A DNA stretch of 40,396 bases from Lysobacterales bacterium. GTDB lineage: Bacteria > Pseudomonadota > Gammaproteobacteria > Xanthomonadales > SZUA-36. Position 1 is the first letter of the stretch. Each line of letters opens with the position of its first letter. Location of the stretch: the NCBI GenBank assembly GCA_032250585.1, contig JAVVFH010000002.1, positions 1-40,396 on the forward strand, read 5' to 3'. The notes under the pieces are model-generated. The model was not told the origin of the DNA, made no database searches, and was given only the letters and a program-made list of their open reading frames with translations. Below are positions 16,132-32,979 of this stretch, in pieces. The position numbers were made by a program, and so were the translations under genes.

Positions 16132-16387
16132 AAGACAGCGAATCGGGCCCCTTCACCGCAGGCGCTCGAGGAAGTCCTGTGCCGGCGCGAAGTCGCCAAC
16201 CGGGTCGACGTCGCGGAACGTTCGCCCATGCGGCTGATCACGCAACCCGGTTCAGCCGGGACACTGCTGAGGAATACTTAAAACGTATATGATGAAGGCT
16301 GTCAGCAGCCGGAAGCCCTTATGCATCGCAGCCAACTCGCCGGATTCATCATCGATTGCCGGACCGAAGAGCTCGACACCGGAACCG

Positions 16388-17119
16388 ATGACATCGAAGC
16401 CCAGCGAGCTGATTTCAGGGAGCGGGCCAATCGCTGGGAATGAGACCATTCCGCGACTGGAACTGCGTTCGGTCTCCAAGTCTTTCCATGACGGCGAGAG
16501 CGATCTGCAGGTCTTGCGCGATATCGACCTGACCCTGAACGCCGGCGACAGCACCGCGTTGCTGGGCGCCAGCGGCTGCGGCAAAAGCACGCTGCTGCAA
16601 ATCGCCGCCGGACTGGAGACGCCGGACTGCGGCGAGGTTCGGGTGCTCGGCAAGCCGTTGCCGTCGATGGGCGAGCGCGAATTGGCCCTACTCAGGCGCC
16701 GTCAACTCGGCTTCGTGTTTCAGCAATTCAACCTGCTGCCGGGCCTCAACGTGCGCGACAACGTATTGTTCCAGCGGCGACTGAACCGCTTGCCGGACGA
16801 AGACGAGTGGATCCGCGAACTGAACTCCGCGCTCGAACTCCAGCCCCTGCTCGAGCGGCCAGTCGAGGTGCTGTCAGGCGGGCAACAGCAGCGAGTCGCC
16901 ATCGCGCGCGCCCTCGCGCACCGACCTGAACTGCTGTTCGCCGACGAACCTACCGGCAACCTGCACGACAGCTTGAGTCGGCAGATCATGAGTTTGCTGG
17001 CACGACTGGTCGAAGAATCCGGCTGCGCCCTGCTGCTGGTGACCCACAATCACGAAATGGCGTCATTTGCGCAGCGCCGCATGAGGCTGGAACAGGCCGT
17101 ACTGCATGCGCTGGACTAG
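16388..17119 (+). CDS. ABC transporter ATP-binding protein (MacB/LolD/AttE-like)
   Basis: Walker [10 protein letters not shown], signature [15 protein letters not shown], Walker [10 protein letters not shown]-loop VTHN. The start is uncertain: the Met at 16388 is chosen, and the ORF track starts at 16289. Confidence 0.85.
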
Positions 17120-17120
17120 T

Positions 17121-17280
17121 CCGAACATTGCACGAGTCGGACCCCGCGCTCTTGCCAGGCTTTGGAATCGTAACCGGGATATGAAGTTTCAAGGAAACAT
17201 TCAAAAAGCGGAATTTGTCCCCGAGCCAAGTCCCGGCGTGCCGGGATCAGCCAGGGCCGGGATGCTGGTGCAATGTTCGG
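17121..17280. repeat. 160-bp element bounded by perfect 13-bp terminal inverted repeats (MITE-like or structured intergenic insert)
   Basis: ccgaacattgcac (17121-17133) is the exact reverse complement of gtgcaatgttcgg (17268-17280). The element starts 2 nt after the ATPase stop and ends 24 nt before the permease GTG. Its interior is relatively AT-rich. Confidence 0.5.
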
Positions 17281-17304
17281 GCTAAACGGGCCCGGGAACT
17301 GACG

Positions 17305-19794
17305 GTGCTGCGGCGCGCCTTGATCAGCCATTACCATCGGCACCCGGTGCAGGCGCTGTTCCTGCTGACCGGGATCGTCGTCGCCAATGTGCTGCTGGTC
17401 GGCACCCTGCTGATCAACGCCCAGGCCCGCGCCAGTTACGAGCAGGGCGAGAGCCTGCTGCGGTCGGGGCCGCTCGGACAGGTCCGGCACATCGATTCCG
17501 ACCGGACTTTCGACGAACGCCACTACCTGCGACTGCGGCTGCAGGGTTTCGACATGCTGGCACCCGTTCTACGACGGATGGTCTTCGGTGCCGACGGCGA
17601 AGCGCTGGAACTGGTCGGCATCGACCTGTTTGCGATGCCGCGGCCCCGGAATGGGGACGACCGCGAGGAGGAGCAACAGGGCAGGGTCTCCGGGCCTGGC
17701 TTTGCGGGCTTTGCCTTCCCGCCCTACCAGCTTTGGGCCGCCCCGGCCCGCCTGGAGCAACTCGGCTGGCAGCCCGGACAGCGACCGCCGTTGAGCACCG
17801 GCGAGACCCTGCCGCCGGCGACGCCGGTGGCCAATGAAGAATTGGGCCATCGCCTGCTGATCGACATCGGCGCACTGCAAGCGCTGACCGACAGCGCCGG
17901 CGAACTGTCTTCGATGCTGGTCTTCGCGGCACCGCCCGAGCGAATCGCAGCCCTGCGCGCCGCGCTGCCGTCCGAACTGGTCTATGTCGCCGGCACGCAG
18001 GTGCCCGATCCGGCCGAACTGACGCGCAGCTTCCACCTGAACCTGGCCGCCATGGGCCTGCTGGCTTTCGTGGTTGGGGTATTTTTGATCTACAACGCGC
18101 TGGCCTTCAGCTACACCGACCGCCGCGAACTGATTCGCAAGCTGCAGCTTTCCGGCGTCACCCGCCGCGAACTGGCCGCCGCGCTGCTGCTGGAACTGTC
18201 GGTTTTCCTGGCGGCGGGCAGCCTGCTGGGCTTTTGGTTGGGCGCCCAAATGGCGGCCTGGCTGCTGCCCGGCGTCGGCCAGACACTGGCCCAGCTGTAT
18301 GGTGTCTACATCGCTTATCCGGACGGACTGGTGCCGTCGGGCTTCCTGTTGCCTTTGCTGATGACCGCGATTGCGGCCGTTCTGTGCGTTCTTTTTCCGC
18401 TGCGCCAGGCCCTGAATACACCCTTGCTGCAGCGCTGGCAGGCGGCCTGGGAGCGACGGTTGGCGGCTCGCCGCGACCGTTTGATGCTGGCAGCCGGACT
18501 CGCCTTGCTGACGGCGGCCGCGGCGTTGGGAATTTCCGCAGAGAGCCTGTGGCCGGCGCTGGCGGGCATGGCCGCGCTGCTGGTCGGCGCCGTCCTGTGC
18601 CTGCCCACGGTGCTGCGGGGACTGCTGCAAATTCTTGAGCACCTGATACCGCCGCACCGGGTACGCCTGGCCTGGCTGATCGCGGACAGCCGCTGGCTGA
18701 TCGGCCCGGCTGCGCTGGCCCTGATGGCGCTGACCCTGGCGCTGGTCGCCAACAGCGGGCTGAACACGATGATCGGCAGTTTTCGCCAGGCCACGGACGA
18801 CTGGCTCGACCAGCGTCTGGCCGCGCAACTTTACCTGCGCGGGGATCTTCAGCTTCCGGGCCTTGATGAATGGCTTCAGCAGCAGGACCCACGGCTGCGC
18901 GCGGTCGAGCGTTACCGGACCCGGCTCAATCGGGAAGCGCCGGCCAGGCGTGCCGCGGCCGTGGAAGTGGTGAGCCTGCAGCCGGGCGGCCGTTTTCTGG
19001 AAGGTGTCGGGCTGATTCGCGAAGCCGCCGGGGCAGGGCCGCGTTTCACCGCCGGCGAGGGCGTCTATGTAAGCGAACGTGCCTGGCGGCTGGACGGATG
19101 GGCATTGGGCGACACGGTGCCCTTGTGTGGGGAAAAGCCCGACCTGCCCGTACTCGGGGTGTATCACGATTACGGTAATCCGGTATCCCAATGGATGGTC
19201 AGCCAAACCCTGTTCCAGCACTGCTGGCCTGGTCAGAGACCGATCGGCAGGGCCATTCACGGTCCCGATGAGCTGGATTGGTATGCGATCGAAGTGGGTC
19301 TGCGGACGCATTTTTCCCTGGCAGCGGACCAACTGATCGATCAGGCGGAACTGAAACAGGCGGGGCTGGCCGTATTCGACCGTACCTTCATCGTCATCCA
19401 GGCACTGAACGCGCTGACCTTGCTGGTGGCCGGCATCGGCATCTTCTGCGCGGTCAGCGCGATCCACCACCACCGTGTCGGCCAGCAGGCCCTGCTCGCC
19501 AGTCTCGGCATGACCCGGCGTGAGCGTGGTTCCTTGCTGCTACTGCAGTGGGGCTTGCTTGGTCTGCTGTGCATGGTGATGGTCTGGCCGTTCGGCACCG
19601 TTCTGGCCGGCTACCTGGCCGGTATCGTCACGCCACTGGCCTTCGGCTGGAGTTTTCCGCTGCGCCTGCAGTGGTCGCACTACCTGGTGCTGGCCGGCCT
19701 TGCCGCGGCCTGCCTGGTGCTTGCCGTGGCACTGCCTTCCCTGCGCCTGCTGCGAACTTCGCCCGCTGCGATGATGCGCGAGCAGGCGCTGTGA
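17305..19794 (+). CDS. ABC transporter permease with two FtsX-type domains (AttF/AttG-like, YbbP-like)
   Basis: About 830 aa with two blocks of transmembrane helices separated by large loops. N-terminus (V)LRRALISHYHRHPVQALFLLTGIVVANVLL is typical of FtsX-family permeases. The GTG at 17305 is preferred over the TTG at 17215. Confidence 0.82.
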   Translation: MLRRALISHYHRHPVQALFLLTGIVVANVLLVGTLLINAQARASYEQGESLLRSGPLGQVRHIDSDRTFDERHYLRLRLQGFDMLAPVLRRMVFGADGEALELVGIDLFAMPRPRNGDDREEEQQGRVSGPGFAGFAFPPYQLWAAPARLEQLGWQPGQRPPLSTGETLPPATPVANEELGHRLLIDIGALQALTDSAGELSSMLVFAAPPERIAALRAALPSELVYVAGTQVPDPAELTRSFHLNLAAMGLLAFVVGVFLIYNALAFSYTDRRELIRKLQLSGVTRRELAAALLLELSVFLAAGSLLGFWLGAQMAAWLLPGVGQTLAQLYGVYIAYPDGLVPSGFLLPLLMTAIAAVLCVLFPLRQALNTPLLQRWQAAWERRLAARRDRLMLAAGLALLTAAAALGISAESLWPALAGMAALLVGAVLCLPTVLRGLLQILEHLIPPHRVRLAWLIADSRWLIGPAALALMALTLALVANSGLNTMIGSFRQATDDWLDQRLAAQLYLRGDLQLPGLDEWLQQQDPRLRAVERYRTRLNREAPARRAAAVEVVSLQPGGRFLEGVGLIREAAGAGPRFTAGEGVYVSERAWRLDGWALGDTVPLCGEKPDLPVLGVYHDYGNPVSQWMVSQTLFQHCWPGQRPIGRAIHGPDELDWYAIEVGLRTHFSLAADQLIDQAELKQAGLAVFDRTFIVIQALNALTLLVAGIGIFCAVSAIHHHRVGQQALLASLGMTRRERGSLLLLQWGLLGLLCMVMVWPFGTVLAGYLAGIVTPLAFGWSFPLRLQWSHYLVLAGLAAACLVLAVALPSLRLLRTSPAAMMREQAL

Positions 19795-20921
19795 GTTCAC
19801 TGGGCACTCCACGTGCTGCCGCTGTCATCGGGACGATGACAGCCGTGCTGCTCGGCGCCTGCGAGCCCACGCCGGCCCCCGGCGAGCCCGGCGGTCTCGC
19901 GGTACTCGCCCAGAGCGCCGAAGGATTTGCGCAAGCGCAGCCCGACGACGCGCTGCAATTTCCCCGCGACCACGGTTCGCACCCGGACTATCGCATCGAG
20001 TGGTGGTATGTGACCGCCAACCTTGAGGACGACGAAGGGCGACCTTACGGCGCGCAGTGGACGCTGTTCCGTTTTGCCGTGCAGCCGCCCGGAAGCTGGG
20101 AGCCGGAAAGCCCGTGGCAAAGCGAACAGGTATTCATGGCGCACATGGCCATCACGACCCCGGCGGAACACTTCGCTTTTCAACGTTATGCGCGCGGCGG
20201 CGACCACCGGGGAATCGCGCAGGCGGGCGTGACGGCCAGGCCCTTCGCCGCTTGGCTGGATGACTGGTCGCTGCGCAGCAGCGAGGGAAACTGGCTGCCG
20301 CTCGAGCTTCGCGCCGCCCAGAACGGCTTTGGTCTGCGCCTGCGCCTGGAAAGCGATCGGCCCCCGTTGCTGCAGGGCGAGGCCGGATTTTCACAAAAAC
20401 ATCCGGACGGCGGCGGCTCCTGGTATTACAGCCAGCCGTTCCTGAAGGCGCGCGGCGAACTGCGCATCGACGGTCAACCGGTACCGGTCCGCGGCCAGGC
20501 CTGGCTGGACCGCGAGTGGAGCAGCCAGTTCCTGCAATCCGATCAGGCCGGCTGGGACTGGTTCGCGCTGCACCTGGAAAGCGGCGAGAAACTGATGCTG
20601 TTTCGCCTGCGCGCACGCGACGGCGGCGCCGACTTCCGCCACGGCGTGCTGATCGGACCCGACGGCAGCCGACAAACCCTGGAGCCATCGCGTATTGGCC
20701 TGCAACCGCTGCACGAAACGGCTGTCGCGGGACGCTCACTGCCTTTGCACTGGCGCATCGATCTCCCTGAAATTGGACGCTCACTGGAGGTCGAGGCCCT
20801 GCATCCGGCGCAGTGGCTCGACGTGGATTTCCCCTACTGGGAGGGTGTAGTTAGCGTCAGCGGCGAATCGCCCGGCAGCCGCGGGCGCGGCTACCTCGAA
20901 TTGACGGGTTTCTCCCCTTAA
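19791..20921 (+). CDS. AttH-like lipoprotein (CrtC/hydroxyneurosporene-synthase-like plus lipocalin-like domains)
   Basis: The GTG at 19791 overlaps the permease stop (GTGA). Lipobox LLGAC is present. DHGSHPDYRIEWWYVTANL and QAWLDREWS are characteristic of the AttH family, which accompanies AttEFG-type ABC systems. Confidence 0.78.
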   Translation: MSSLGTPRAAAVIGTMTAVLLGACEPTPAPGEPGGLAVLAQSAEGFAQAQPDDALQFPRDHGSHPDYRIEWWYVTANLEDDEGRPYGAQWTLFRFAVQPPGSWEPESPWQSEQVFMAHMAITTPAEHFAFQRYARGGDHRGIAQAGVTARPFAAWLDDWSLRSSEGNWLPLELRAAQNGFGLRLRLESDRPPLLQGEAGFSQKHPDGGGSWYYSQPFLKARGELRIDGQPVPVRGQAWLDREWSSQFLQSDQAGWDWFALHLESGEKLMLFRLRARDGGADFRHGVLIGPDGSRQTLEPSRIGLQPLHETAVAGRSLPLHWRIDLPEIGRSLEVEALHPAQWLDVDFPYWEGVVSVSGESPGSRGRGYLELTGFSP

Positions 20922-20947
20922 GACTGCCTTAAGGTTTGTCCCTTAAG
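20917..20947. promoter_or_regulatory. Three CTTAAG palindromes within 31 nt at the attH-like / hemolysin-like gene junction
   Basis: ccCTTAAGactgcCTTAAGgtttgtccCTTAAGctg. The middle copy is the 8-bp palindrome ccttaagg. This is an AT-core hexamer clustered in a GC-rich genome, and it overlaps the stop codon at 20919-20921. Confidence 0.25.
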
Positions 20948-20983
20948 CTGGCGGCAACTTATGGCTTTGCGCCGGATGGCCCC

Positions 20984-21745
20984 ATGTCTTACCCAAACAG
21001 GAAATCCCTCGCTCCTTCGATCAGCAACGACGGTCTCGAGGCAAAGGCGTTGCTGCAGCTCACCCGCATACTGAAGCCCGCCCCGGTTTTCGCCGCGCAT
21101 GCACAAAGCAGCCCGGAGCGAACGCACGCCGAGCAATACATCGCGGCCCGCTTCCACGCGGCGCATGGCGCCGATATCCGCGATTTCATGCCCGTCCTGC
21201 TCACCATGCGCTGTCACGGACGCACCACAGCCGCCACCGGCATCCGGGCCGCGGCGCAGCAGCCGCTGTTCCTTGAACAGTACCTCCCCGGTCCGATCGA
21301 GCAGGTGCTGGGTGACATGACCGGCGAAACGATTCAGCGCACGAACATCGCCGAGATCGGCAACCTGGCCGCCACCCAGAGCGGTTCCAGCTACCTGCTG
21401 TTCATCGTGCTGAGCGCCATTCTCGAGCAGGCCCGCTTCGACTGGGTCGTTTTCACCGCCACGCCCCGGGTCCGAAAGATGTTGGGCCGTCTGGGATTAA
21501 GGGTGCATGTCCTGTGTGCAGCCGACCCCGCTTGCCTGACCCGGTCGGCGGCAGCCGAATGGGGCCGCTACTACGCCAGCGGACCGCAAGTGTTGGCCGG
21601 CCGGGTAGGCGACGCGATGGACGTATTGAGCCAGCGCCGACCATACGCCAGCCTGCTGTCCCTGTTTCGTGGTCCCATCGGTGAGATGGCGAAAACCGTC
21701 AGGCGGGACAGCTCCCGGAATGGAAGCCATGTTCTCGCCGCGTGA
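20984..21745 (+). CDS. Thermostable-hemolysin (delta-VPH)-family protein, probable GNAT-like acyltransferase
   Basis: ERTHAEQYIAARFHAAHGADIRDFMPVLL..., ...LFLEQYL..PIEQVL......R..IAEIGNLAA... and ...WVVFTAT..V...L.RLGL match my recollection of the T_hemolysin family. The ATG at 20984 is chosen; the TTG at 20936 is possible. Confidence 0.7.
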   Translation: MSYPNRKSLAPSISNDGLEAKALLQLTRILKPAPVFAAHAQSSPERTHAEQYIAARFHAAHGADIRDFMPVLLTMRCHGRTTAATGIRAAAQQPLFLEQYLPGPIEQVLGDMTGETIQRTNIAEIGNLAATQSGSSYLLFIVLSAILEQARFDWVVFTATPRVRKMLGRLGLRVHVLCAADPACLTRSAAAEWGRYYASGPQVLAGRVGDAMDVLSQRRPYASLLSLFRGPIGEMAKTVRRDSSRNGSHVLAA

Positions 21746-23246
21746 TCGCGCCTTTTCTGCGCGTGCTGATGCCGCTGACCCAATCGCGGTCAGCGGCACA
21801 GCCCAGGCCTGGACACGCTCGCGGCTGACGGAACGCTGCAGCGCCCTGGCTGAACGGCTGACGGCTCTGGATCTGCAAGTCGTGGCGCTGCACATGGACA
21901 ACCGGCCAGAGTGGATCGTCATCGACATGGCCTGCCAGGCTGCGTCCGTCTGCCTGGTGCCGCTACCCGGTTTTTTTTCGCCGGCACAGCTGCGGCATAT
22001 CCTGAACACCGTTCCGATCGACGGGGTGCTGACCGAACAGCCTGAAATGCTCTCACCCCTTTGCGCCGACCGCCTGCGCCCCGGAATGGATCTGCCGTTG
22101 GGTGGGAGCACCCTGCTGCGACTGAAGCGGGTCCGAAACACTCAGGTGCTGCCCGCCGGCACCGGAAAAATCACCTTCACTTCCGGTTCGACCGGACGGC
22201 CCAAAGGCGTCTGTCTCAGCAACGGGCAACTGCAGGCACAGGCCGCGGCGCTGGCCGCCGCGGTGGGTCTCGAGCAGCCCCGGCATCTCTGCCTGCTGCC
22301 ACTGAGCACCCTGCTGGAGAACGTCGCCGGCGTCTACGCGCCGCTGTTGTCCGGCGGCGAAGTGGTGGTGCCCACCCTGGCGGAAATCGGTTTTTATGGC
22401 AGCTCGTCACTGGATACCGGACTGTTCCTCGAACAGATCAGCCAGCAGCAGCCCAACAGCATTCTCCTGACACCGCAGCTGCTGCAAATCCTCGTGTCCG
22501 CAGCCGGCAATGGCTGGCAGCCGCCGGCCTCACTGGTCTTCGCCGCGGTGGGCGGCGCGAAGGTGCCGGTCGCCTTGCTACAAAGGGCCCGGGCCCTGGG
22601 CATCCCGGCTTTCGAAGGTTACGGGCTTTCGGAATGCGCCTCAGTGGTCAGCCTGAACCGGCCCGGCCGCGACCGGCCCGGCAGCTGTGGCCAGCCGCTG
22701 GCTCAGCTGGGAATCACCGTCGACGACGGGGAAATCCGCGTGGCCGGCAATGCCATGCTCGGCTATGCCGGCGAGCCGGAGAGCTGGGGACAGGACCAGA
22801 TTGCGACCGGCGACCTCGGCTACCTGGACAACGAGGGGTTCCTGTACATCAACGGTCGCAAAAAAAACCTGTTGATCACCAGCTTCGGGCGAAACATTGC
22901 TCCGGAGTGGGTCGAAAGCGAAGCGCTCGCCAGTGGTGTTCTGGCCGAATGCGTGGTGGTCGGTGACGCGAGGCCGTTCTGCATCGCCCTGCTGTCGCCG
23001 CGCAACCCGGCCGCAGCAGACGAGACCATCCAAAGCGCGATCGACGACAGCAACGCGCGCCTGCCGGACTACGCCCACATCAGGCGCTGGCACCGCCTCG
23101 TGCAGCCGCTGGCCGACAGCAGCGAACTGATCACCGAAAACGGCCGTCCTAAACGCCATGCCATCATCACGCGCTACCAGAGCGTGATCGATGCCCTCTA
23201 CGCAGGCGATACCTGCGCCGCCAAACCTTACGCGAGAACCGCATGA
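21720..23246 (+). CDS. AMP-dependent synthetase/ligase (acyl-CoA or acyl-adenylate forming)
   Basis: Adenylation core motifs TFTSGSTGRPKGV, EGYGLSECAS, TGDLGYLDNEGFLYINGRKKNLL and a C-terminal NGRPKR. The start overlaps the end of the upstream gene. Confidence 0.85.
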   Translation: MEAMFSPRDRAFSARADAADPIAVSGTAQAWTRSRLTERCSALAERLTALDLQVVALHMDNRPEWIVIDMACQAASVCLVPLPGFFSPAQLRHILNTVPIDGVLTEQPEMLSPLCADRLRPGMDLPLGGSTLLRLKRVRNTQVLPAGTGKITFTSGSTGRPKGVCLSNGQLQAQAAALAAAVGLEQPRHLCLLPLSTLLENVAGVYAPLLSGGEVVVPTLAEIGFYGSSSLDTGLFLEQISQQQPNSILLTPQLLQILVSAAGNGWQPPASLVFAAVGGAKVPVALLQRARALGIPAFEGYGLSECASVVSLNRPGRDRPGSCGQPLAQLGITVDDGEIRVAGNAMLGYAGEPESWGQDQIATGDLGYLDNEGFLYINGRKKNLLITSFGRNIAPEWVESEALASGVLAECVVVGDARPFCIALLSPRNPAAADETIQSAIDDSNARLPDYAHIRRWHRLVQPLADSSELITENGRPKRHAIITRYQSVIDALYAGDTCAAKPYARTA

Positions 23247-23914
23247 GTTTCTTCCCGACGTTACAGAACGAAACCGAAACCGCCCGTGGTGAACTTTTGA
23301 CCGTGCCACTCATCCAACGGGCCCTGGCCGGACGCATCACCCGATCCGAATACGCGGCCTTCCTGGCCCAGGCCTATCACCACGTGCGGCACACCGTGCC
23401 GCTGCTGATGGCAGTCGGCAGCCGGCTGCCTGATTCCTGCGGCTGGCTGCGGGTCGCGGTTGCCGAATACATCGCGGAAGAGATCGGTCACGAAGAGTGG
23501 ATCCTCAATGACATCACGGCCTGCGGGTTCGACGCCGAAGCGGTGCGCCGCAGCAGGCCCGCGATCCCGACCGAGTTGATGGTCGCTTATGCCTATGACC
23601 TCATCGATCGCGTCAATCCGCTCGGTTTCTTCGGCATGGTACACGTGCTGGAAGGAACCTCCGTCGCCATCGCCGATAACGCGGCCCGTTCGATCGGGGA
23701 AAGTCTGTCGCTGCCCGAAAACGCGTTCACCTACCTTTACTCTCACGGCACGCTCGACATCGAACACCTGAAGTTCTTCGAAGATTTAATGAACCGGATC
23801 GAAGGACCGGCAGACCAGGCGCAGATCATCCACTCAGCCCGCGTGTTCTACGGCCTCTACGGCGATATTTTCCGATCGCTGGACGGCACCACAGCCCCGG
23901 CGCTGGCGGCCTGA
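23243..23914 (+). CDS. Heme-oxygenase-like (TenA/PqqC/CADD-like) iron-containing redox enzyme, candidate diiron oxidase
   Basis: All-helical 223-aa protein with carboxylate/His clusters AEYIAEEIGHEEW, MVHVLEGTS and YSHGTLDIEHLKFFEDL. ATGA start/stop overlap with the ligase gene. Confidence 0.7.
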   Translation: MSFFPTLQNETETARGELLTVPLIQRALAGRITRSEYAAFLAQAYHHVRHTVPLLMAVGSRLPDSCGWLRVAVAEYIAEEIGHEEWILNDITACGFDAEAVRRSRPAIPTELMVAYAYDLIDRVNPLGFFGMVHVLEGTSVAIADNAARSIGESLSLPENAFTYLYSHGTLDIEHLKFFEDLMNRIEGPADQAQIIHSARVFYGLYGDIFRSLDGTTAPALAA

Positions 23915-24696
23915 TGGACTGCAGAGGCAAACAGGTTCTGCTGGCCGGGGCCAGCGGCGGCATCGGGCAGGCGATCGCGCTGGAACTGGACCGCGCCGGC
24001 GCCCTGCTGACCCTGGTCGGGCGCAGCGAAGACAAGCTGGTTGCCCTGTGCCGCCAACTCGAGGGACCCCAACAGCTGATCGCCGCCAACCTCGACGACC
24101 CCACGCAGCGCGACCGGGTCGTGCGGCATTGCGAGCAAAACGGCCTGGATATCCTGATCAATGCCGTCGGCGTCATGGACTTTCGGCTGTTCGATGCGCA
24201 GGCGCCCGTCGAGATCGAGCGCATGGTCAGGACCAACCTGTTGACCCCCATGCTGCTGTGCCAGCGACTGCTGCCCATGCTGCGACAGCGCGACGAAGCG
24301 GTCATCGTCAACATCGGCTCCATTTTCGGCAGCATCGGGCATCCCGGTTTCGCCGCCTATTGCGCCAGCAAGTTCGGCCTGCGGGGTTTTACCGAGGCAT
24401 TGCAGCGAGAACTGCACGACAGCAGCGTGCGCGTTTCTTATCTTGCACCCCGTGCCACCCGCACGGATCTGAACACGGCCGCGGTCACGGCCCTCAACGA
24501 AGCGCTAGGCAACGCAACCGATACGCCGGAACAGGTGGCCGCTGCAGTGCTCAGGATGCTCGTTCAGAAAAGCCGACAACGCTACATCGGCTGGCCGGAA
24601 AACCTGTTCGTTCGCCTGAACGGTCTGTTCCCGAACCTCGTCCATAACGCGCTGGTGCGCAAAATGCATATCATCCGGTCGCATGCCGAAACCTGA
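23914..24696 (+). CDS. Short-chain dehydrogenase/reductase
   Basis: Cofactor motif LLAGASGGIGQA, NAVG, and the catalytic S...YCASK triad. TGATG overlap with the upstream gene. Confidence 0.88.
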   Translation: MDCRGKQVLLAGASGGIGQAIALELDRAGALLTLVGRSEDKLVALCRQLEGPQQLIAANLDDPTQRDRVVRHCEQNGLDILINAVGVMDFRLFDAQAPVEIERMVRTNLLTPMLLCQRLLPMLRQRDEAVIVNIGSIFGSIGHPGFAAYCASKFGLRGFTEALQRELHDSSVRVSYLAPRATRTDLNTAAVTALNEALGNATDTPEQVAAAVLRMLVQKSRQRYIGWPENLFVRLNGLFPNLVHNALVRKMHIIRSHAET

Positions 24697-24712
24697 ATTG
24701 GAGACTCTGTCC

Positions 24713-25360
24713 ATGAAAAATGCTTTATCGATTGTTTTTGTTCTGATCCTTTGCCTGGGCACCAGCCAGGCGGTTACAGCCGGCGACGACGAAATCCTGC
24801 GGCTGCAGCAACGCTGGGCCGAGGTAAACTATCAACTGGAAGGCAAGACACGCCTGACGGCATTCGAGGAACTGGTCCGCGAGGCCGACCAACTGACCGC
24901 CAGCAAGCCCGACTTCGCAGCCGCCTACATCTGGAGCGGCATCATCAAATCTTCCTTCGCCGGCGCCCGGGGCGGTCTCGGCGCGATGAAGCTGGCCAAG
25001 GCCGCGCGCACCGACCTGGAGCGCGCCATGGAAATCGATGCAGACGCGCTGCAGGGCTCCGCCTATACCAGCCTCGGCACGCTGTACTACAAGGTGCCCG
25101 GCTGGCCAGTGGGCTTCGGCGACGAGCGCAAGGCAGAGGAGCTGTTGCGCACGGCACTCACTCTGAACCCGGACGGCATTGACCCGAATTATTTCTATGG
25201 GGACTTTCTGCTGGATCAGAAGCGCTACGAAGAGGCCGAAAAAGCCCTGCTCAAGGCGCAACAGTCGCCGGCCCGGCCCGATCGCCCGCTGGCCGATGCC
25301 GGCAGACAGGAAGAGATCGAAGTGGCATTATTGAAGGTCCGAAAGAAACTTCGCAAATGA
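24713..25360 (+). CDS. Secreted TPR-like helical-repeat protein
   Basis: The ATG at 24713 is preceded by a GGAGA RBS. Signal peptide MKNALSIVFVLILCLGTSQAVTA. The helical repeats are rich in A/L/E/Y (AAYIWSGII, GSAYTSLGTLYYK, NYFYGDFLLDQKRYEEAEKALLKA). Confidence 0.62.
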   Translation: MKNALSIVFVLILCLGTSQAVTAGDDEILRLQQRWAEVNYQLEGKTRLTAFEELVREADQLTASKPDFAAAYIWSGIIKSSFAGARGGLGAMKLAKAARTDLERAMEIDADALQGSAYTSLGTLYYKVPGWPVGFGDERKAEELLRTALTLNPDGIDPNYFYGDFLLDQKRYEEAEKALLKAQQSPARPDRPLADAGRQEEIEVALLKVRKKLRK

Positions 25361-25378
25361 GGTCCGGAACCACACCGC

Positions 25379-26038
25379 ATGCTGATATTGCTGGTCGAAG
25401 ATGACCGTTCGATAGCCCGGGCCCTCGAGCGGGCGCTGCGCAAGCAGGGCTATAGCGTCAATACGGTCGGCGGCGGCCAGGCGGCCCTGTTGGCGATCGA
25501 AACCGAACTGCCGGATCTTGCCATTCTCGACCTCGGCCTGCCTGACATGGACGGCCTGGAGGTGCTTAGGCAGGTCCGCAAGCGCAATGTGAATCTGCCG
25601 ATCCTGCTGCTGACCGCTCGCGCCGGCCTCGATGACAAGGTAGCCGGTCTCGACAGCGGCGCCGACGACTACCTGGCGAAACCTTTCGAGATGAACGAAC
25701 TGTTCGCCCGTCTGCGCGTCATGGAACGACGCCAGACCACTGCGCGGACCGCAATGATCACGATCGGCGCGGTGACCCTGGACATCAACCGCAACCGTGT
25801 CGCGGTCGACGGCGCAGTGATGGAGCTGTCGCGTCGCGAGTTCATGTTGCTCAAGAACCTGATGGAGAACGCCGGCCGCGTACAGACGCGCAACACGCTC
25901 GAAAGTCGGCTGTATGGCTGGGGCGAGGAGGTCTCCAGCAATGCGCTGGAGGTGCATATCCATCATTTGCGCCGCAAACTCGGCGCCGATTTTATCAAGA
26001 CCGTGCGGGGCGTCGGCTACAGGATCGAGAACGCGTGA
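25379..26038 (+). CDS. OmpR/PhoB-family response regulator (QseB/BasR-like)
   Basis: Receiver domain MLILLVEDD...LAILDLGLPDMDG...LLLTA. Winged-helix C-terminus LEVHIHHLRRKLG...IKTVRGVGYRIE. Confidence 0.92.
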   Translation: MLILLVEDDRSIARALERALRKQGYSVNTVGGGQAALLAIETELPDLAILDLGLPDMDGLEVLRQVRKRNVNLPILLLTARAGLDDKVAGLDSGADDYLAKPFEMNELFARLRVMERRQTTARTAMITIGAVTLDINRNRVAVDGAVMELSRREFMLLKNLMENAGRVQTRNTLESRLYGWGEEVSSNALEVHIHHLRRKLGADFIKTVRGVGYRIENA

Positions 26039-27705
26039 ATTCGATCCGGGTGTTTCTGGTCACCGTCATCCTGGCCACCATCGCGCTGTTCTACTTTGTA
26101 GCGGCGCTGCGCGGCTACCAGTCCAGCATGCAGGAAGCTGAGCGCCTGTTCGACAAGCAGCTGCTGGACACGGCCCGCCTGATCGCCAGCCTGCACGCGG
26201 AGCAGGCAAACAACGAGCTCGGCCACGACGCCGGCATGGCGTTTCAGGTCTGGCAGGGCGAACGACTGCTGGCTTTCTCGCGCAATGCCCCCACCACCGC
26301 CATCGCGCCGCACAGGTCCGGCTTCGGTTTCGCCAACTTCGCAGGCTATCGATGGCGCACGACCGCTTATTTCGATGCGGCGAACGGCGACTGGATTCTG
26401 GTCGCCGATCGCACCGATCTGCGTTCCGCCCTGGCCGAGAACGTCATTCTCGAATCGCTGTTGCCGACGCTGATCGGACTGCCGGTAGTCGGCCTGCTGA
26501 TCTGGCTGATCGTGACCGGGGGCTTGCGGCCCCTGCGGATGCTGGCGAAGGAGTTGGCCAGCAAGCAGCCGGACGATTTGACGCCGTTGGCCACCAAGAC
26601 ACCCAAGCGGGAACTGGAGCAGATCGTGGTTTCCTGCAATGGCCTGCTGCAAAGGCTGGAAACCTCGCTGTTGCGCGAAAAACAATTCGCCTCAGACGCC
26701 GCGCACGAACTCAGAACGCCGATCAGTGCGCTCAAGGTGCAGTTGTACAACCTGTCGCGGGAAGGCATGGCCGAGCCGCATTTGCTGAGTGAACTCGAGC
26801 AGACGGTGCACCGCCTAAAGCATAGCGTCGAGCAGATTTTGGATCTCTACCGCAGTTCGCCGGACCAGTTCAACGCCACATTCGAAGCACTGGATCTGAG
26901 CGCCCTGGCGCGCGACGTTCTCGCTGGAGAGTGCACCGCCTTCGATCGCAAGCAGCAACAGCTCGAATTCCGGGGCCAGCCCTGCACGATTGCCGGCGAC
27001 CGGTTTGCCTTGACGACCCTGCTGCGTAATCTGCTCAGCAATGCCAACAAGTACACACCGCGCGGCGGGCAGGTCCTGGTGACGGTCGGACAGAAAGACG
27101 ACATCGTGCGCTTGACCGTCGAAGATTCGGGGCCGGGCATCCCGGCTGAGCAGGGCGACCTGATTTTCGAGCGCTTTTTCCGGATTGGCCAGGACCGGCA
27201 CGAATCGGGTGAGACAGGCTGCGGGCTCGGCCTGGCCATCGTCAAGCGGCTGGTGGACCTGCACCGGGGCCACATATCGATCGCCCCTTCGCGTTTTGCG
27301 TCAGGTACGGCGTTCCAGGTCGACTTGCCGCGGCTCCGGCGCCAGGCGGCGGGCGGGACAACGGCCCCCGTTTCGAAATTGGCCTCGAAATCAACTTCGC
27401 TGCTGATTTTACTGCTGAGTGCAACCCCTTTACAGGCAGGACCGCCCATAGTCGAGATCGAAATCCGCGACCACCTGTTCTTTCCGCCCGAGGTGGTGAT
27501 CCCGGCGAACACCAAGGTCAAACTGCTGATCAAGAATCTCGACCCGACCCCCGAGGAATTCGAAAGTTACGAACTGAACCGCGAGAAGGTCATCAGCGGC
27601 AACAGTCAAACCGTCATCTTCATCGGCCCGTTGCCCGCCGGCGAGTATCCGTTCTTCGGCGAATTCTATCCAAAGACCGCCCAGGGCAAGGTCCGGGTCG
27701 AGTAA
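26035..27705 (+). CDS. Sensor histidine kinase (QseC/BasS-like) whose ORF continues in frame into a signal-anchor plus cupredoxin-like domain
   Basis: The GTG at 26035 overlaps the regulator stop (GTGA). Two TM helices flank a periplasmic domain. H-box AAHELRTPISAL, N-box LLSNANKYTP, G-boxes EDSGPGIP and GCGLGLAIV are present. There is no stop codon after the ATPase domain, and 109 further codons follow (see next feature). Confidence 0.85.
   Translation: MNSIRVFLVTVILATIALFYFVAALRGYQSSMQEAERLFDKQLLDTARLIASLHAEQANNELGHDAGMAFQVWQGERLLAFSRNAPTTAIAPHRSGFGFANFAGYRWRTTAYFDAANGDWILVADRTDLRSALAENVILESLLPTLIGLPVVGLLIWLIVTGGLRPLRMLAKELASKQPDDLTPLATKTPKRELEQIVVSCNGLLQRLETSLLREKQFASDAAHELRTPISALKVQLYNLSREGMAEPHLLSELEQTVHRLKHSVEQILDLYRSSPDQFNATFEALDLSALARDVLAGECTAFDRKQQQLEFRGQPCTIAGDRFALTTLLRNLLSNANKYTPRGGQVLVTVGQKDDIVRLTVEDSGPGIPAEQGDLIFERFFRIGQDRHESGETGCGLGLAIVKRLVDLHRGHISIAPSRFASGTAFQVDLPRLRRQAAGGTTAPVSKLASKSTSLLILLLSATPLQAGPPIVEIEIRDHLFFPPEVVIPANTKVKLLIKNLDPTPEEFESYELNREKVISGNSQTVIFIGPLPAGEYPFFGEFYPKTAQGKVRVE
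27379..27705 (+). other. Cupredoxin-like (FtrB/EfeO-N-like) periplasmic domain with its own signal-peptide-like segment; either the C-terminal domain of the kinase or a nested gene starting at TTG 27379
   Basis: (L/M)ASKSTSLLILLLSATPLQA is followed by PPIVEIEIRDHLFFPPEVVIPANTKVKLLIKNLDPTPEEFESYELNREKVISGNSQTVIFIGPLPAGEYPFFGEFYPKTAQGKVRVE. This resembles the roughly 110-aa cupredoxin proteins normally encoded next to FTR1 permeases. It has no Cys, hence no type-1 Cu site. Confidence 0.6.
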
Positions 27706-27724
27706 GGCGCGCGGGAGTCAAGAG

Positions 27725-28522
27725 ATGCTGCTGATGTCCGTTATCCTGATCCTGCAGGAAACCCTCGAGGCCGCCATGCTGGTCAGTATCCTGGCCGCCG
27801 TCACGCTGCAGGCAGGGCGCCACCTGAGTTGGCTGCCGTGGGGCTTCGCCGGCGGCTGCATCATGGCCTTCGTGTATGCAGCCAACATTCAACGGATCTC
27901 CGAATGGTTCGACTTCGTTGGACAGGAACTGACCAACGCGGCCTTGCAAGCCACGATCGCGGCGGCCATTGTGCTGCTGGCCTGGCGGATATCCCGCATC
28001 TACGCGACCGGCGATGCGGCAGCAGTCGCGCCAGGCCGCCACGGTTCGATGTTCCAGGTCCTTTGCGCCTTGATCATCGGCCTGGCGGTAACCCGGGAAG
28101 GCTCGGAGATCCTCGTGTACCTCGGCGGCTTCCTGGCACAGAGCGACAAGAGCCAGGCCGTGCTGACCGGCAGCGCCATCGGCTTCGGCATCGGCCTCAG
28201 CGTGGGCCTGCTCCTGTTCCATGGCCTGCTGGCGCTGGGCGACAAGCGCTGGATTCCGTTCGCGCTGCTCGGGCTGTTCTGCGGCAATATGCTGGCGCAA
28301 TCGGCCCTCCAACTGACGCAGGCAGACTGGCTGCAGCCGGGCCCAACCCTCTGGGACAGTTCCGCCTGGCTGTCGGAGCACTCGGTCATCGGGCGCTTGC
28401 TATACGCCCTGTTGGGCTACGAAGCCAACCCATCGACGGCCCAGGTCATCGGCTACCTGACCGGGGCCGCGGCCGTGCTGGCTGCCGCCCTGGCGCCGAC
28501 CCGATCCGTGGCCAAGGCGTGA
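27725..28522 (+). CDS. FTR1-family high-affinity iron permease
   Basis: Polytopic membrane protein with one canonical REGSE motif (AVTREGSEILVYLGG). The first-helix motif is degenerate, QETLE instead of RExxE. Confidence 0.82.
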   Translation: MLLMSVILILQETLEAAMLVSILAAVTLQAGRHLSWLPWGFAGGCIMAFVYAANIQRISEWFDFVGQELTNAALQATIAAAIVLLAWRISRIYATGDAAAVAPGRHGSMFQVLCALIIGLAVTREGSEILVYLGGFLAQSDKSQAVLTGSAIGFGIGLSVGLLLFHGLLALGDKRWIPFALLGLFCGNMLAQSALQLTQADWLQPGPTLWDSSAWLSEHSVIGRLLYALLGYEANPSTAQVIGYLTGAAAVLAAALAPTRSVAKA

Positions 28523-28533
28523 CCACGACCATC

Positions 28534-29262
28534 ATGAAGCAGATCGTGCTGGGCTCTGCCCGCGCGGCAGCTCTTCTGGTGTTGCTGACTGCAGCACCCG
28601 CCCCAACGCCGGCGGACGGGGTCATCATCGACAAGGTTTACCATCCCTATGTGCAGCCCCTGGAAAAAGAACTGGAATGGCGCGCGATCCATCAGGATGA
28701 GCAACGAGGCCGCCCGGACAACCTGCAGCTGTATCGCCTCGCTTACGGTCAGTCGCTGGGTGAGCGATGGTTTGCCGAGCTCTACCTCGTGGGCAGCAAC
28801 TCCGACGAGGGTCGTTTCGATATCGAAGCCTACGAAATTGAGGCGCAAAGGCAGCTGACCGAGCAGGGCGAGTACTGGGCCGACTGGGGCGTGCTGTTTG
28901 AGCTCGAGAAGGAGGCCGACCTGGACGCCTGGGAGTTTTCGACCGGCCTGCTCGCCGAGAAGGAATGGGGCCGCTGGAGCGGCACCGCGAACCTATTCCT
29001 GGAGTATGAGTGGGGCTCGGACATCGCTGATGAAGCAGAGACCCGCCTGGGTCTGCAGGCCCGCTATCGACACTCGCCGGGCTTCGAACCCGCTGTCGAA
29101 ATCTACAGCGGGGAAGACACGCACGGCATCGGCCCGGCCGTACTGGGCCAGCTGCCGCTCGGCCACAGGCGTCAAATCAGATGGGAAGCAGGCGTCATTT
29201 TCGGCGTCGGAAGCAAAAGCCCGGACACCACGCTGCGCTTCCTGTTGGAGTTCGAATTTTAA
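28534..29262 (+). CDS. Outer-membrane beta-barrel protein (unknown family)
   Basis: Signal peptide MKQIVLGSARAAALLVLLTAAPAPTPA. Alternating amphipathic strands with many aromatic residues. C-terminus ...TLRFLLEFEF ends in Phe. An alternative GTG start at 28519 overlaps the FTR1 stop (GTGA). Confidence 0.62.
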   Translation: MKQIVLGSARAAALLVLLTAAPAPTPADGVIIDKVYHPYVQPLEKELEWRAIHQDEQRGRPDNLQLYRLAYGQSLGERWFAELYLVGSNSDEGRFDIEAYEIEAQRQLTEQGEYWADWGVLFELEKEADLDAWEFSTGLLAEKEWGRWSGTANLFLEYEWGSDIADEAETRLGLQARYRHSPGFEPAVEIYSGEDTHGIGPAVLGQLPLGHRRQIRWEAGVIFGVGSKSPDTTLRFLLEFEF

Positions 29263-29340
29263 CCCACATCGTGGGCCAACAGGTTTTCGGCCGGGTGACC
29301 GCCACGCGCATGCGGTTTTTGCGCCTGCTGCCTGCGGGCA

Positions 29341-29778
29341 TCAACCGCAGCCTTCGAAACCCTCGGAATCCATCCTGGCCTCGTAAGGAGCGGCTACTTC
29401 GCCGCCGGGCGTGAGGGTGGGCTTCACGCTGTCCCAGTCCTCGGGATCCAACTGCACCATCCAGGCGGTGTAGGGGTCCTCGTTGGCCTTGCCGGGATGG
29501 GCGACCAGGTCCTCGTTGACCGCGACCACCTCGCCGCCGGCCGCGGACTTGGCGGGGCCGACCCATTTGCCCGATTCGACGGTAGCGCAGGACTTGCCCG
29601 GCCGGACCTTGCGCCCAACTTTCTTGGGCGTGAAGGCGACCAGCTGGCCGGCCATCGCCGTGGCGACGGCCGTCATGCCAATCCGGACGGTACCGTCACC
29701 GACCTCGGTGAACCAAATGTGGTTGTCGACATCGTAAAGCAAGTCGTCCGGTAGAGTACATCCGCGAACCGTTGGCAT
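29341..29778 (-). CDS. lbpA: Lipoate-binding protein of the sHdr system (GcvH-like)
   Basis: GcvH fold signature ...YDVDNHIWF..., ...GMTAVA...G.LV... and the lipoyl-lysine context ATVESGKWVGP. A GGAGG RBS lies 8 nt upstream of the ATG. The gene is adjacent to the hdr genes. Confidence 0.85.
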   Translation of the reverse strand: MPTVRGCTLPDDLLYDVDNHIWFTEVGDGTVRIGMTAVATAMAGQLVAFTPKKVGRKVRPGKSCATVESGKWVGPAKSAAGGEVVAVNEDLVAHPGKANEDPYTAWMVQLDPEDWDSVKPTLTPGGEVAAPYEARMDSEGFEGCG

Positions 29779-29807
29779 TTCAGAACCTCCCGAGTTTGTT
29801 CCATGAA

Positions 29808-29889
29808 ACGGGGTCAGAGTACGTTTTCCCGACGGGCCATCTCAAGCCGTTCGGGAGTCAGGGAAATGGTACTCTGACCCCGTTTTTTT
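29808..29889. repeat. 76-nt palindromic element (perfect 15-bp arms) followed by a T7 run; terminator-like on the plus strand, intercistronic stem-loop on the minus strand
   Basis: acggggtcagagtac (29808-29822) pairs with gtactctgaccccgt (29869-29883). The 46-nt interior can pair further (ttttccc/gggaaa, gac/gtc). ttttttt follows, with its first T being the last base of the right arm. The element lies 30 nt upstream of the lbpA start codon on the minus strand. Confidence 0.55.
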
Positions 29890-30309
29890 GTCCGAGTCAA
29901 CCCTTTCCCGAACGGGTCTTGACGCGCAACAGAACTCGCCGAGCTGCGCGCTTTCCATTTTGCCGCTGACGAACAGGTAAAGGTGCCTGGCGACCAGCGC
30001 CATCATGCGCGCACGCGACGCGCTTTCCTCATGATCCGGCTGCAGCGTGAGCAGATTGTAATGCCAGGCCAGCTCACGGCAGGTTTCGCGGCAGGCGTTG
30101 AAGCTGGGCTCCTTGTCCGCCCCCTGGCGGTGCAGGGCGAGCAGGCGAAAACCCTCGCGCTCCCGGTGAGTCGGCTGATGACCCCGCGCGCTCACCCAGT
30201 GTTCCAGAACCTCCTCACCCAGCGCCAGCAGTTCCTCCGCGTCAGTAGCGGTGCCCGACGCTGCACAAAGCGCATCCAGGCGCACGCCAATCGCCGCGAG
30301 TGTCCTCAC
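29842..30309 (-). CDS. Hypothetical 155-aa Cys-rich helical protein, translationally coupled to hdrB2
   Basis: The GTG at 30309 overlaps the hdrB2 stop (GTGA). Product is VRTLAAIGVRLDALCAASG...FNACRETCRELAWHYNLL...GEFCCASRP... with five Cys, including a CxxxC and a CC. The last roughly 15 codons are encoded by the palindromic element, so the C-terminus is uncertain. Confidence 0.45.
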   Translation of the reverse strand: MRTLAAIGVRLDALCAASGTATDAEELLALGEEVLEHWVSARGHQPTHREREGFRLLALHRQGADKEPSFNACRETCRELAWHYNLLTLQPDHEESASRARMMALVARHLYLFVSGKMESAQLGEFCCASRPVRERVDSDKKTGSEYHFPDSRTA

Positions 30310-32016: not shown

Positions 32017-32075
32017 CGATCAATCCCGTTTTTCCATGCGGCGGCCGGCGGCAAGGGTTTTGTCGGGCATCGGGT

Positions 32076-32975: not shown

Positions 32976-32979
32976 GGCG

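Follow-up and report, generated by a model that had tools for sequence, protein, structure and literature searches.

Background

Several described systems resemble parts of the locus considered here, a predicted operon of a Lysobacterales bacterium that begins with a gene of the 'thermostable hemolysin' (T_hemolysin) family and lies in a 40,396-nucleotide (nt) stretch of contig JAVVFH010000002.1, the whole of which we call the window. The FeeM/LuxI-type synthases, especially the coenzyme A (CoA)-dependent enzymes BjaI, RpaI and MesI, are small GNAT-fold proteins in which a thioester donates its fatty or aryl acyl group to an amine derived from an amino acid, and CoA-dependent N-acyl homoserine lactone (AHL) synthases use a separate CoA ligase. 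The heme-oxygenase-like diiron proteins (HDOs) UndA, BesC, MboA, AetD and CADD, like the unassigned PDB entry 3DDE (Sden_3740), have a seven-helix heme oxygenase-like fold with an E-x-x-H ... E ... H-x3-D-x2-H ligand set. A three-histidine/three-carboxylate (3H/3C) motif defines most HDOs, several of the characterized ones are N-oxygenases, and in characterized 3H/3C members the substrate carboxylate or amino acid is bound at Fe1 (PMC13108848). Proteins of the TatT superfamily, which are frequent in marine bacteria, have long-chain fatty acids or sterols as ligands, and a quarter of them stand outside tripartite ATP-independent periplasmic (TRAP) transport systems (PMC11713862). In the PmrAB (BasRS) system of Salmonella, Escherichia coli and Klebsiella, PmrA-dependent promoters carry a two-hexamer box that stands in for the -35 element (PMC3973317, PMC10570014), and PmrA of K. 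pneumoniae contacts DNA through T187, N188, V192 and H195 (PMC10570014).

Members of the T_hemolysin family were themselves obtained as clones conferring hemolysis, namely delta-VPH and dth (Fallarino 2002, as cited in PMC12208996). In Vibrio cholerae the ligase adjoining dth has been named DthC, and in a mutant of the dth-adjacent ligase VCA1110 the elongation of a fed C13 fatty acid was altered (PMC12208996). A cluster of the kind described below was listed on a plasmid of Pseudoalteromonas carrageenovora as a 'potential virulence cluster' without an assigned function, and the same cluster was noted in 24 Pseudoalteromonas genomes, Vibrio alginolyticus and Nautella (Gobet et al., PMC6262041). 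The superfamilies of the components, PmrA-type regulation of the envelope, HDO chemistry and TatT carriers are each already known; our literature search found no paper on this combination, on the reaction of T_hemolysin, on the HDO clade or on the link to the promoter.

Organization of the operon

We tentatively propose that the locus is a mobile module, responsive to metals, for the synthesis and handling of an amphiphilic N-acyl lipid alongside an iron transporter. The proposal is based on the families and folds of the encoded proteins, a diiron ligand motif, conserved gene order, gene fusions, a promoter box and its enrichment, and neighboring genes for iron transport and lipopolysaccharide (LPS) metabolism; from these we infer, as discussed below, which substrates are used, in what order the steps follow, what is produced, which signal induces the operon and what its physiological role is.

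The unit in the window comprises ten genes on the plus strand and runs from a promoter box at 20917 to 29262. A sequence-only reading of the window had described an orphan operon of five genes at 20936-25360; those five plus-strand open reading frames (ORFs) are indeed present, but the unit does not end at 25360 and continues through a two-component system and a set of iron-related genes. The first gene codes for the T_hemolysin protein (20984..21745, 253 amino acids [aa]). Its mechanically called ORF spans 20936-21745 from a TTG at 20936, but the ATG at 20984 is the likely start, since it agrees with the 253-aa gene call in the databases and lies downstream of the predicted promoter. The AMP-forming acyl/aryl ligase of the ANL superfamily (21720..23246, 508 aa) starts with an ATG 26 nt inside the end of the T_hemolysin gene, and an identical 26-nt overlap is called in homologues. 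An ATGA overlap at 23243-23246 joins it to the HDO gene (23243..23914, 223 aa), and a TGATG overlap at 23912-23916 joins the latter to a classical short-chain dehydrogenase/reductase (SDR; 23914..24696, 260 aa). The fifth gene codes for a secreted tetratricopeptide repeat (TPR) protein (24713..25360, with an alternative start at 24683 for the longest ORF); its ATG at 24713 follows a 16-nt gap with a GGAGA sequence and opens the signal peptide MKNALSIVFVLILCLGTSQA. The genes of the back half (25379-29262) have the same orientation and are closely spaced or overlapping: an OmpR-family response regulator (25379..26038), a sensor histidine kinase fused to a cupredoxin (26035..27705), an FTR1/EfeU-family iron permease (27725..28522) and a secreted 242-aa protein (28534..29262). 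A scan of the plus strand from 20700 to 29500 found no convincing internal terminator. The overlaps, the ribosome-binding site, the signal peptide and the protein motifs quoted in the sequence-only reading were all recovered in the sequence and its translations, and profile searches bore out its five family assignments, all scoring above the curated cut-offs.

Conservation, fusions and gene neighborhoods

Related loci (labeled L001-L069) were drawn from metagenomes and genomes, from a scan of one genome per species (49 loci) and from plasmid and chromid records. This gene order is shared by more than 50 loci of Gamma-, Beta- and Alphaproteobacteria, often borne on a plasmid or chromid, so that the operon, having also been noted earlier in Pseudoalteromonas (PMC6262041), is not an orphan. 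In a tblastn matrix, every locus of sufficient length had its genes arranged as T_hemolysin-ligase-HDO-SDR-(TPR), and the five genes thus travel together. Next to them, in most loci, are genes for an OmpR-family regulator and a sensor kinase, followed in most Gammaproteobacteria (Zhongshania, Methylophaga, Dasania, Halieaceae, Microbulbifer, Pseudoalteromonas and metagenome-assembled genomes [MAGs] of Lysobacterales) by those for cupredoxin, FTR1 and a secreted protein of about 240 aa. The five-gene core is found alone on plasmids of Citrobacter freundii and Vibrio parahaemolyticus, which indicates that they form a genuine sub-module. Most hosts are bacteria living free in the sea or in soil, or are known as environmental genomes of uncultured organisms; at megablast sensitivity, complete E. 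coli genomes contained no copy of the Citrobacter cassette. When 1,122 ORFs flanking about 55 loci were clustered, the flanking genes were seen to vary between genera and, two-component systems apart, to include no further family shared across genera. Such varying flanks fit a mobile unit, and the cassette is mobile and present in three proteobacterial classes.

Two gene fusions link the core proteins directly: T_hemolysin is fused to the ligase in Microbulbifer sediminum (722 aa), and the ligase to the HDO in Novosphingobium (678 aa). Apparent ligase-to-SDR fusions in Burkholderiales MAGs were set aside as open-frame artefacts of high G+C content. In some loci genes for an S-adenosylmethionine (SAM)-dependent methyltransferase and an InaA-like LPS kinase are inserted between those for the ligase and the HDO (L058/L059, 8555-10022; L010), and in Novosphingobium a methyltransferase gene follows that for the TPR protein. 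The inserted genes suggest lineage-specific methylation or phosphorylation of the product.

Iron-related genes from unrelated families recur near the cassette. Besides FTR1 with cupredoxin in many loci, they include VIT exporters (Variovorax and Pantoea), an extracytoplasmic function (ECF) sigma factor with FecR and a TonB receptor (Novosphingobium), a siderophore receptor with a PepSY protein (Alteromonas) and a ferric reductase (a Rhodocyclaceae genome). Genes for flavodoxin, cytochrome b and high-potential iron-sulfur protein (HiPIP) are also found near some cassettes.

The T_hemolysin protein, the ligase and the SDR

The PF12261 profile covers 170 of its 174 positions in the first protein, with a score of 185.2 bits against a cut-off of 27, and the family is populous, with about 2,243 clusters at 50% identity among 1.84 billion representatives. 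Searched against PDB sequences, a T_hemolysin profile gave no match, and the translation contains no signal peptide. An AlphaFold2 model built with 66 homologues (mean predicted local distance difference test score, pLDDT, 91.8) assumes a compact GNAT-type fold, for which Foldseek returned as top matches LasI (1RO5, 1.8e-7), TofI, MesI, FeeM, EsaI, BjaI and RpaI, with target-normalized template modeling (TM) scores of 0.55-0.67. The GNAT-fold siderophore acyltransferase DfoC is also among the matches, with the LuxI/FeeM proteins ranking higher. Model and fold search thus agree with the GNAT/LuxI/FeeM-like fold that the sequence-only reading had given for this family. In view of this fold, the lack of a signal peptide, the conserved 26-nt coupling to the ligase gene and the fusion with the ligase, we read the protein as an acyltransferase fed by the ligase; to judge from the model, it looks like a LuxI/FeeM-like enzyme and not a toxin. 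The pairing and fusion of the T_hemolysin and ligase genes can likewise be compared with the separate CoA ligase used by CoA-dependent AHL synthases. Unlike LuxI and FeeM, T_hemolysin is longer (253 aa) through extra helices, shares only 10-15% identity with them, lacks their Pfam match, and has no LuxR-type receptor linked to its cassette.

In the ligase, PF00501 (AMP-binding) scores 161.5 bits, above its cut-off, PF23562 is also matched, and the adenylation motifs TSGSTGRPKG, GYGLSE and GRKKN are present. Its nearest PDB relatives are MenE and the fatty-acyl and feruloyl-CoA synthetases. The SDR matches PF00106 (adh_short) with 143 bits and the equivalog model NF006565 (PRK09072) with 332.1 bits against a cut-off of 238; it contains the glycine-rich motif GASGGIG and the YxxxK motif as YCASK, and its nearest relatives in the PDB are FabG-type reductases.

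The predicted heme-oxygenase-like diiron protein

Of all the proteins of the cluster the HDO is the most conserved (53-72% identity), and it matches PF14518 (Haem_oxygenas_2) with 112.7 bits, where the cut-off is 28.9. The clade to which it belongs is very large, with at least 7,998 significant relatives (8,000 candidates scored). The residues E80, H83, E137, H168, D172 and H175 are invariant across 43 homologues, and these six putative ligands align with their equivalents in PDB 3DDE and in the structurally characterized diiron enzyme MboA; together they make up a 3H/3C motif, the six-ligand diiron motif anticipated in the sequence-only reading. The structural model (pLDDT 88, lowest at 72-82 in the ligand-bearing stretches) has a heme oxygenase-like fold, with TM-scores of 0.87 to 3DDE, 0.83 to CADD and 0.74-0.77 to UndA. 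The entry 3DDE is also a true sequence relative (E 6e-19); UndA is undetectable from the HDO sequence, and the protein does not belong to the CADD family, the TIGR04305 (p-aminobenzoate synthase) model scoring 22.1 bits against a cut-off of 200. By its fold and invariant ligand motif the protein appears to belong to the heme-oxygenase-like diiron enzymes, with a predicted metal site. It shares fold and ligand set with the characterized HDOs but has at most 24% identity to any solved member, and among the characterized HDOs we found none encoded beside an acyltransferase, a ligase, an SDR and a TatT-like carrier, or fused to a ligase. DtpC, an HDO-like desiccation factor of Acinetobacter, was considered as a parallel and rejected, as its gene context is unrelated.

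Both the HDO (23900-23914) and T_hemolysin (21731-21745) end in ...LAA, resembling the end of the ssrA tag recognized by ClpXP. The HDO ends in -AA in 22 of 58 loci, and T_hemolysin in -AA, -SA or -VA in 15 of 61, with no such bias at the C-terminus of the ligase (0 of 59) or the SDR (0 of 57). Judging by these termini, T_hemolysin and the HDO could be under proteolytic control.

The TPR protein

The TPR protein is matched by TPR_19 (29.8 bits against a cut-off of 25), and its local matches in the PDB are BstC (7T1S, 2e-6) and 8G53 (8e-4), followed by Es_TatT (8G52) at 0.33. The NCBIfam model for BstC matches it at 8e-10 with 38.5 bits against an equivalog cut-off of 350, and its Novosphingobium homologue bears the RefSeq name 'TatT component family'. 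By sequence, then, the protein seems to be related to the lipid carriers TatT and BstC. With BstC it shares, in the local match, the stretch G-x-L-Y-x-K-x-P-x-W-P-x-G-x-G-D, and also the placement of its gene in a (here proposed) lipid-biosynthesis operon and not with a TRAP transporter. It differs from TatT and BstC in being shorter (about 215 aa), in lacking a clear lipoprotein box and in falling far under the BstC equivalog cut-off. The signal peptide contains a cysteine without the canonical L-[AS]-[GA]-C box, and cleavage after SQA or VTA is equally possible.

A predicted PmrA-type promoter and the two-component system

The pattern YTTAAK-N5-YTTAAK, which follows the published definition of the PmrA box (PMC3973317, PMC10570014), has a single match in the window, with 0.18 expected. 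This is CTTAAGACTGCCTTAAG (20917..20933, plus strand), two CTTAAG hexamers with a 5-nt spacer, situated 51 nt before the ATG at 20984 and in place of a -35 element. A probable -10 hexamer, TAAGCT (20944..20949, plus strand), follows 10 nt after the box. Among the related loci, 39 of 62 have a perfect box within 300 nt upstream of the T_hemolysin gene, and the other perfect boxes number only nine in 1.08 Mb; a box matching at 11 or more of the 12 positions is present in 49 of 62, against 4% of shuffles. Anchored on the box, an alignment of 43 upstream regions gives the consensus CTTAAG.tT.cCTTAAg.tT..Ctc..TA..cT, with TAnnnT at a fixed distance of 10 nt downstream. These features suggest that the operon has a PmrA-type, activator-dependent promoter to which a regulator is predicted to bind. 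A sigma-70 consensus scan of the plus strand from 20700 to 29500 found no promoter, as expected of one that is activator-dependent. A third CTTAAG (20942-20947) lies 14 nt past the second hexamer and overlaps the predicted -10 TAAGCT. The stop codon of the upstream AttH-like gene (20919-20921) falls within the first hexamer of the box.

The response regulator encoded within the operon has PmrA as its best NCBIfam match (230.9 bits), with QseB next at a similar score, and has S187, N188, V192 and H195 at the positions of the DNA contacts T187, N188, V192 and H195 of K. pneumoniae PmrA. The box is kept before cassettes without an adjacent two-component system, on the plasmids of L062 and L063, in the hosts of which a resident PmrA-type regulator would be sufficient. 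It also precedes other genes: of the nine other perfect boxes, one stands before ArnC-like GT2, DedA and ArnT-like GT39 genes on plasmid pBGP9 of Alteromonas macleodii (L069, about 3356), and another before a YejM/PbgA-like sulfatase-family gene in Dasania marina (L004, about 7899), which suggests a wider PmrA-like regulon in marine Gammaproteobacteria. The likeness to the enterobacterial PmrAB regulon accordingly comprises the box with its spacer and replaced -35 element, the contact residues kept by the operon's regulator, and the boxes before ArnC-like, ArnT-like and YejM-like genes in related loci. The differences are that the regulator and kinase here fall under the equivalog cut-offs, that an iron permease is part of the operon, and that the enzymes are unrelated to Arn, EptA or Alm. 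The V. cholerae CarRS/VprAB-AlmEFG lipid A glycine system also places an adenylating enzyme and an acyltransferase under PmrAB-like control, and by analogy resembles the pairing seen here.

The kinase (2CSK_N, HisKA and HATPase domains by Pfam) is fused in frame to the C-terminal cupredoxin, forming a protein of 556 aa with no stop codon between the two parts; the nearest relative, L060, has the same fusion (553 aa). In most relatives the cupredoxin has a separate gene, which in Dasania is in the same frame, directly after the kinase stop codon. A hydrophobic stretch at residues 455-473 of the fused protein could, from its sequence, be either a third membrane pass or the signal peptide of a cupredoxin started internally (TTG 27379). 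By eye we saw no clear ExxE motif in the periplasmic domain of the kinase.

The iron permease set

The permease matches the FTR1 family (PF03239) with 51 bits and EfeU with 69 bits, the latter below its cut-off. Of its REXXE-type motifs, that at residue 124 is canonical (REGSE), and that at residue 11 has its arginine replaced (QETLE). The 242-aa protein, which follows FTR1 in most gammaproteobacterial loci, has no relative in Pfam, NCBIfam or the PDB; as far as sequence can tell, its signal peptide and its C-terminus, LRFLLEFEF, probably mark it as a small beta-barrel of the outer membrane. The set resembles FtrABCD and EfeUOB in combining an FTR1-family permease bearing REXXE-type motifs with a periplasmic cupredoxin-type partner. 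It differs from them in lacking P19/FtrA, the polyferredoxin FtrD and EfeO/EfeB, with the 242-aa protein in their stead beside the cupredoxin and FTR1, and, in this lineage, in the fusion of the cupredoxin to the sensor kinase.

A proposed lipid pathway and its alternatives

In the mechanism that we propose, the PmrA/QseB-like regulator of the operon, partnered with the sensor kinase, would bind the CTTAAG-N5-CTTAAG box; because the regulator is encoded in the operon behind its own box, the operon would also be self-inducing. By analogy with PmrB, the sensor would probably report periplasmic Fe(III), another metal or envelope stress. The AMP-ligase would activate a carboxylic acid, in all likelihood a fatty acid of medium or long chain length, and T_hemolysin would pass the acyl group to an amine acceptor, an amino acid-type molecule, to give an N-acyl compound. 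The HDO would, with O2, tailor a carboxylate-bearing intermediate by hydroxylation, desaturation or decarboxylation, the SDR would adjust a hydroxyl or keto group, and the TatT/BstC-like TPR protein would ferry the lipid, or the incoming fatty acid, across the periplasm, while the back half of the operon (cupredoxin, FTR1 permease and small outer-membrane protein) would move iron. Lipid surfactants, for example rhamnolipids or lipoamino acids, typically cause heat-stable hemolysis. The heat-stable hemolysis reported for members of the family would then come from the lipid product, which would explain the name 'thermostable hemolysin'.

The order of activation, transfer, oxidation and reduction envisaged in the sequence-only reading is plausible; the ligase-HDO fusion allows another, in which the HDO may act before activation rather than after transfer, because 3H/3C HDOs bind a carboxylate or amino acid at Fe1 and because the HDO is fused to the ligase. 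The pathway interpretation of that reading stands as to the protein families, the fold, the ligand motif and the joint travel of the genes, and falls as to orphan status and the five-gene extent. An uncharacterized small-molecule lipid pathway is still the right class, as no characterized pathway or product was found in the literature; that reading lacked the PmrA-type promoter, the apparent kinship of the TPR protein with TatT and BstC, and the iron and LPS context, all of which narrow the likely biology.

A bolder form of the proposal, which we regard as doubtful, would take the T_hemolysin family as an unrecognized class of N-acyl synthases that, with the ligase, HDO and reductase, makes a new lipid. 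The lipid would either serve as an AHL-like autoinducer that the TatT-like carrier brings to the adjacent QseC/PmrB-like kinase, or bind iron while anchored in the membrane and hand it to cupredoxin and FTR1; in both cases the delta-VPH and Dth 'hemolysins' of Vibrio would be lipid products and not protein toxins.

Several observations weigh against the lipid module that we propose. The likeness of T_hemolysin to LuxI and FeeM is moderate (TM 0.45-0.67, identity 10-15%), and the protein matches no acyltransferase model in Pfam, including Autoind_synth, with PF12261 its only match at E-values up to 0.01. The ligase is below the cut-off of every NCBIfam equivalog among the 25 models listed, the best being MenE with 137 bits against 330, and its substrate could be something other than a fatty acid. 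Regulator and kinase likewise fall under the equivalog cut-offs (230.9 against 330 bits for PmrA, 183.5 against 314 for PmrB), and the best match of the kinase is QseC, with heavy-metal and PmrB-like NCBIfam models also matched, so that the signal need not be Fe(III). A box at 11 or more of 12 positions is absent from 13 of the 62 loci, including Chromatiales-like loci, several Burkholderiales MAGs, Pantoea and Novosphingobium. A Fur box is lacking and control by Fur was rejected, the best match to the Fur 19-mer upstream of the first gene being no better than in shuffles in 61 of the 62 loci. An iron importer would be an odd partner for a PmrA-type response to excess iron, and no conserved exporter accompanies the cassette, the ABC transporter matches in other loci being generic.

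The recurrence of iron-transport neighbors from unrelated families raises the question of whether the product is itself a metallophore, an amphiphilic binder of iron or copper such as an N-acyl hydroxamate, made by acyl transfer and N-oxygenation by the HDO and released to the periplasm or outer membrane to feed cupredoxin and FTR1 or TonB receptors. The existence of several HDOs that are N-oxygenases (PMC13108848) and the presence of DfoC among the fold matches of T_hemolysin would accord with this. We nevertheless consider it unlikely: there is no Fur box before the operon and no consistently linked TonB receptor or exporter, FTR1 systems import free iron and not chelates, VIT proteins export iron, LuxI and FeeM outrank DfoC in the fold search, and the PmrA-type control and LPS-gene neighbors indicate an envelope response.

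Alternatively, the best structural matches of T_hemolysin being AHL synthases, CoA-dependent ones included, the product might be a self-inducing lipid signal, with iron uptake as the output. A LuxI-like T_hemolysin with its own CoA ligase would then make an N-acyl signal, tailored by the HDO and SDR and shown by the TatT-like protein to the QseC-like kinase, and the regulator would in turn activate the operon in a positive loop like that of agr. Synthesis genes, kinase and regulator are indeed encoded in one operon behind the regulator's own box, the best profile match of the kinase is QseC, and some loci include a methyltransferase, as do fatty-acid methyl-ester signal systems. Set against this are the plasmid-borne core cassettes that retain the box without an adjacent kinase or regulator, for which it would be enough that the host has a PmrA-type regulator answering to a generic signal, the occurrence of the same box before LPS-related genes, and the lack of a match to the Autoind_synth model of Pfam. 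A dedicated signal is accordingly quite improbable.

We give still less credence to a role in fatty-acid scavenging, in which long-chain fatty acids from outside are caught by the TatT-like protein, trapped within the cell by the ligase through vectorial acylation, and converted or detoxified by the remaining enzymes, no dedicated product being secreted. It would draw on the binding of long-chain fatty acids by characterized TatT proteins and their frequency in marine bacteria (PMC11713862), and on the altered C13 fatty acid elongation of the VCA1110 mutant (PMC12208996). Yet it leaves unexplained the ligase-fused LuxI/FeeM-like acyltransferase, the highly conserved diiron oxidase and the PmrA-type control, and the clustering of flanking ORFs showed no linked genes for beta-oxidation.

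Finally, the literal annotation, with the first gene coding for a secreted protein hemolysin in a virulence locus, as proposed for Pseudoalteromonas and Vibrio, can practically be dismissed: family members were cloned as conferring hemolysis (delta-VPH and dth, as cited in PMC12208996) and the cluster has been called a potential virulence cluster (PMC6262041), but the lack of a signal peptide, the enzyme-like GNAT fold of the model (pLDDT 92), with AHL and N-acyl-amino-acid synthases as best matches, and the translational coupling and occasional fusion to an adenylating ligase argue against the claim behind the family name, as does the mostly free-living, marine or soil-dwelling or uncultured environmental character of the hosts.

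Should the proposed lipid module prove correct, it would supply the first function for a 'hemolysin' family of about 2,200 clusters at 50% identity, as well as one for an HDO clade that is among the most conserved and abundant of those unassigned, and for a TatT-type lipid carrier outside TRAP transporters. PmrA-type control of metal and envelope responses, familiar above all from the polymyxin resistance of enteric bacteria, would also be extended to a mobile cassette. The cassette is common in marine Gammaproteobacteria, and Citrobacter, Vibrio, Pantoea and Aeromonas carry it on plasmids; the promoter box, the gene fusions and the cultured hosts (Dasania marina, Zhongshania, Pseudoalteromonas, Alteromonas and Citrobacter freundii FDAARGOS_73) make the proposal directly testable.

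Other genes in the window

Upstream of the operon is a trio of genes (16289-20921) for a LolD/MacB-like ABC ATPase, an 859-aa FtsX-type permease and an AttH/CrtC-lipocalin protein. It was considered as a candidate exporter and rejected, as it recurs only in the closest relative, L060, where a cytochrome gene intervenes; these genes are outside the conserved unit. Downstream, the minus strand at 29341-34029 encodes a GcvH-like lipoate carrier, a CCG-domain protein, a 4Fe-4S dicluster protein and an FAD/pyridine-nucleotide-disulfide oxidoreductase, which together form a heterodisulfide reductase-like set that is also present in L060 and suggests that the host is a sulfur-oxidizing gammaproteobacterium.

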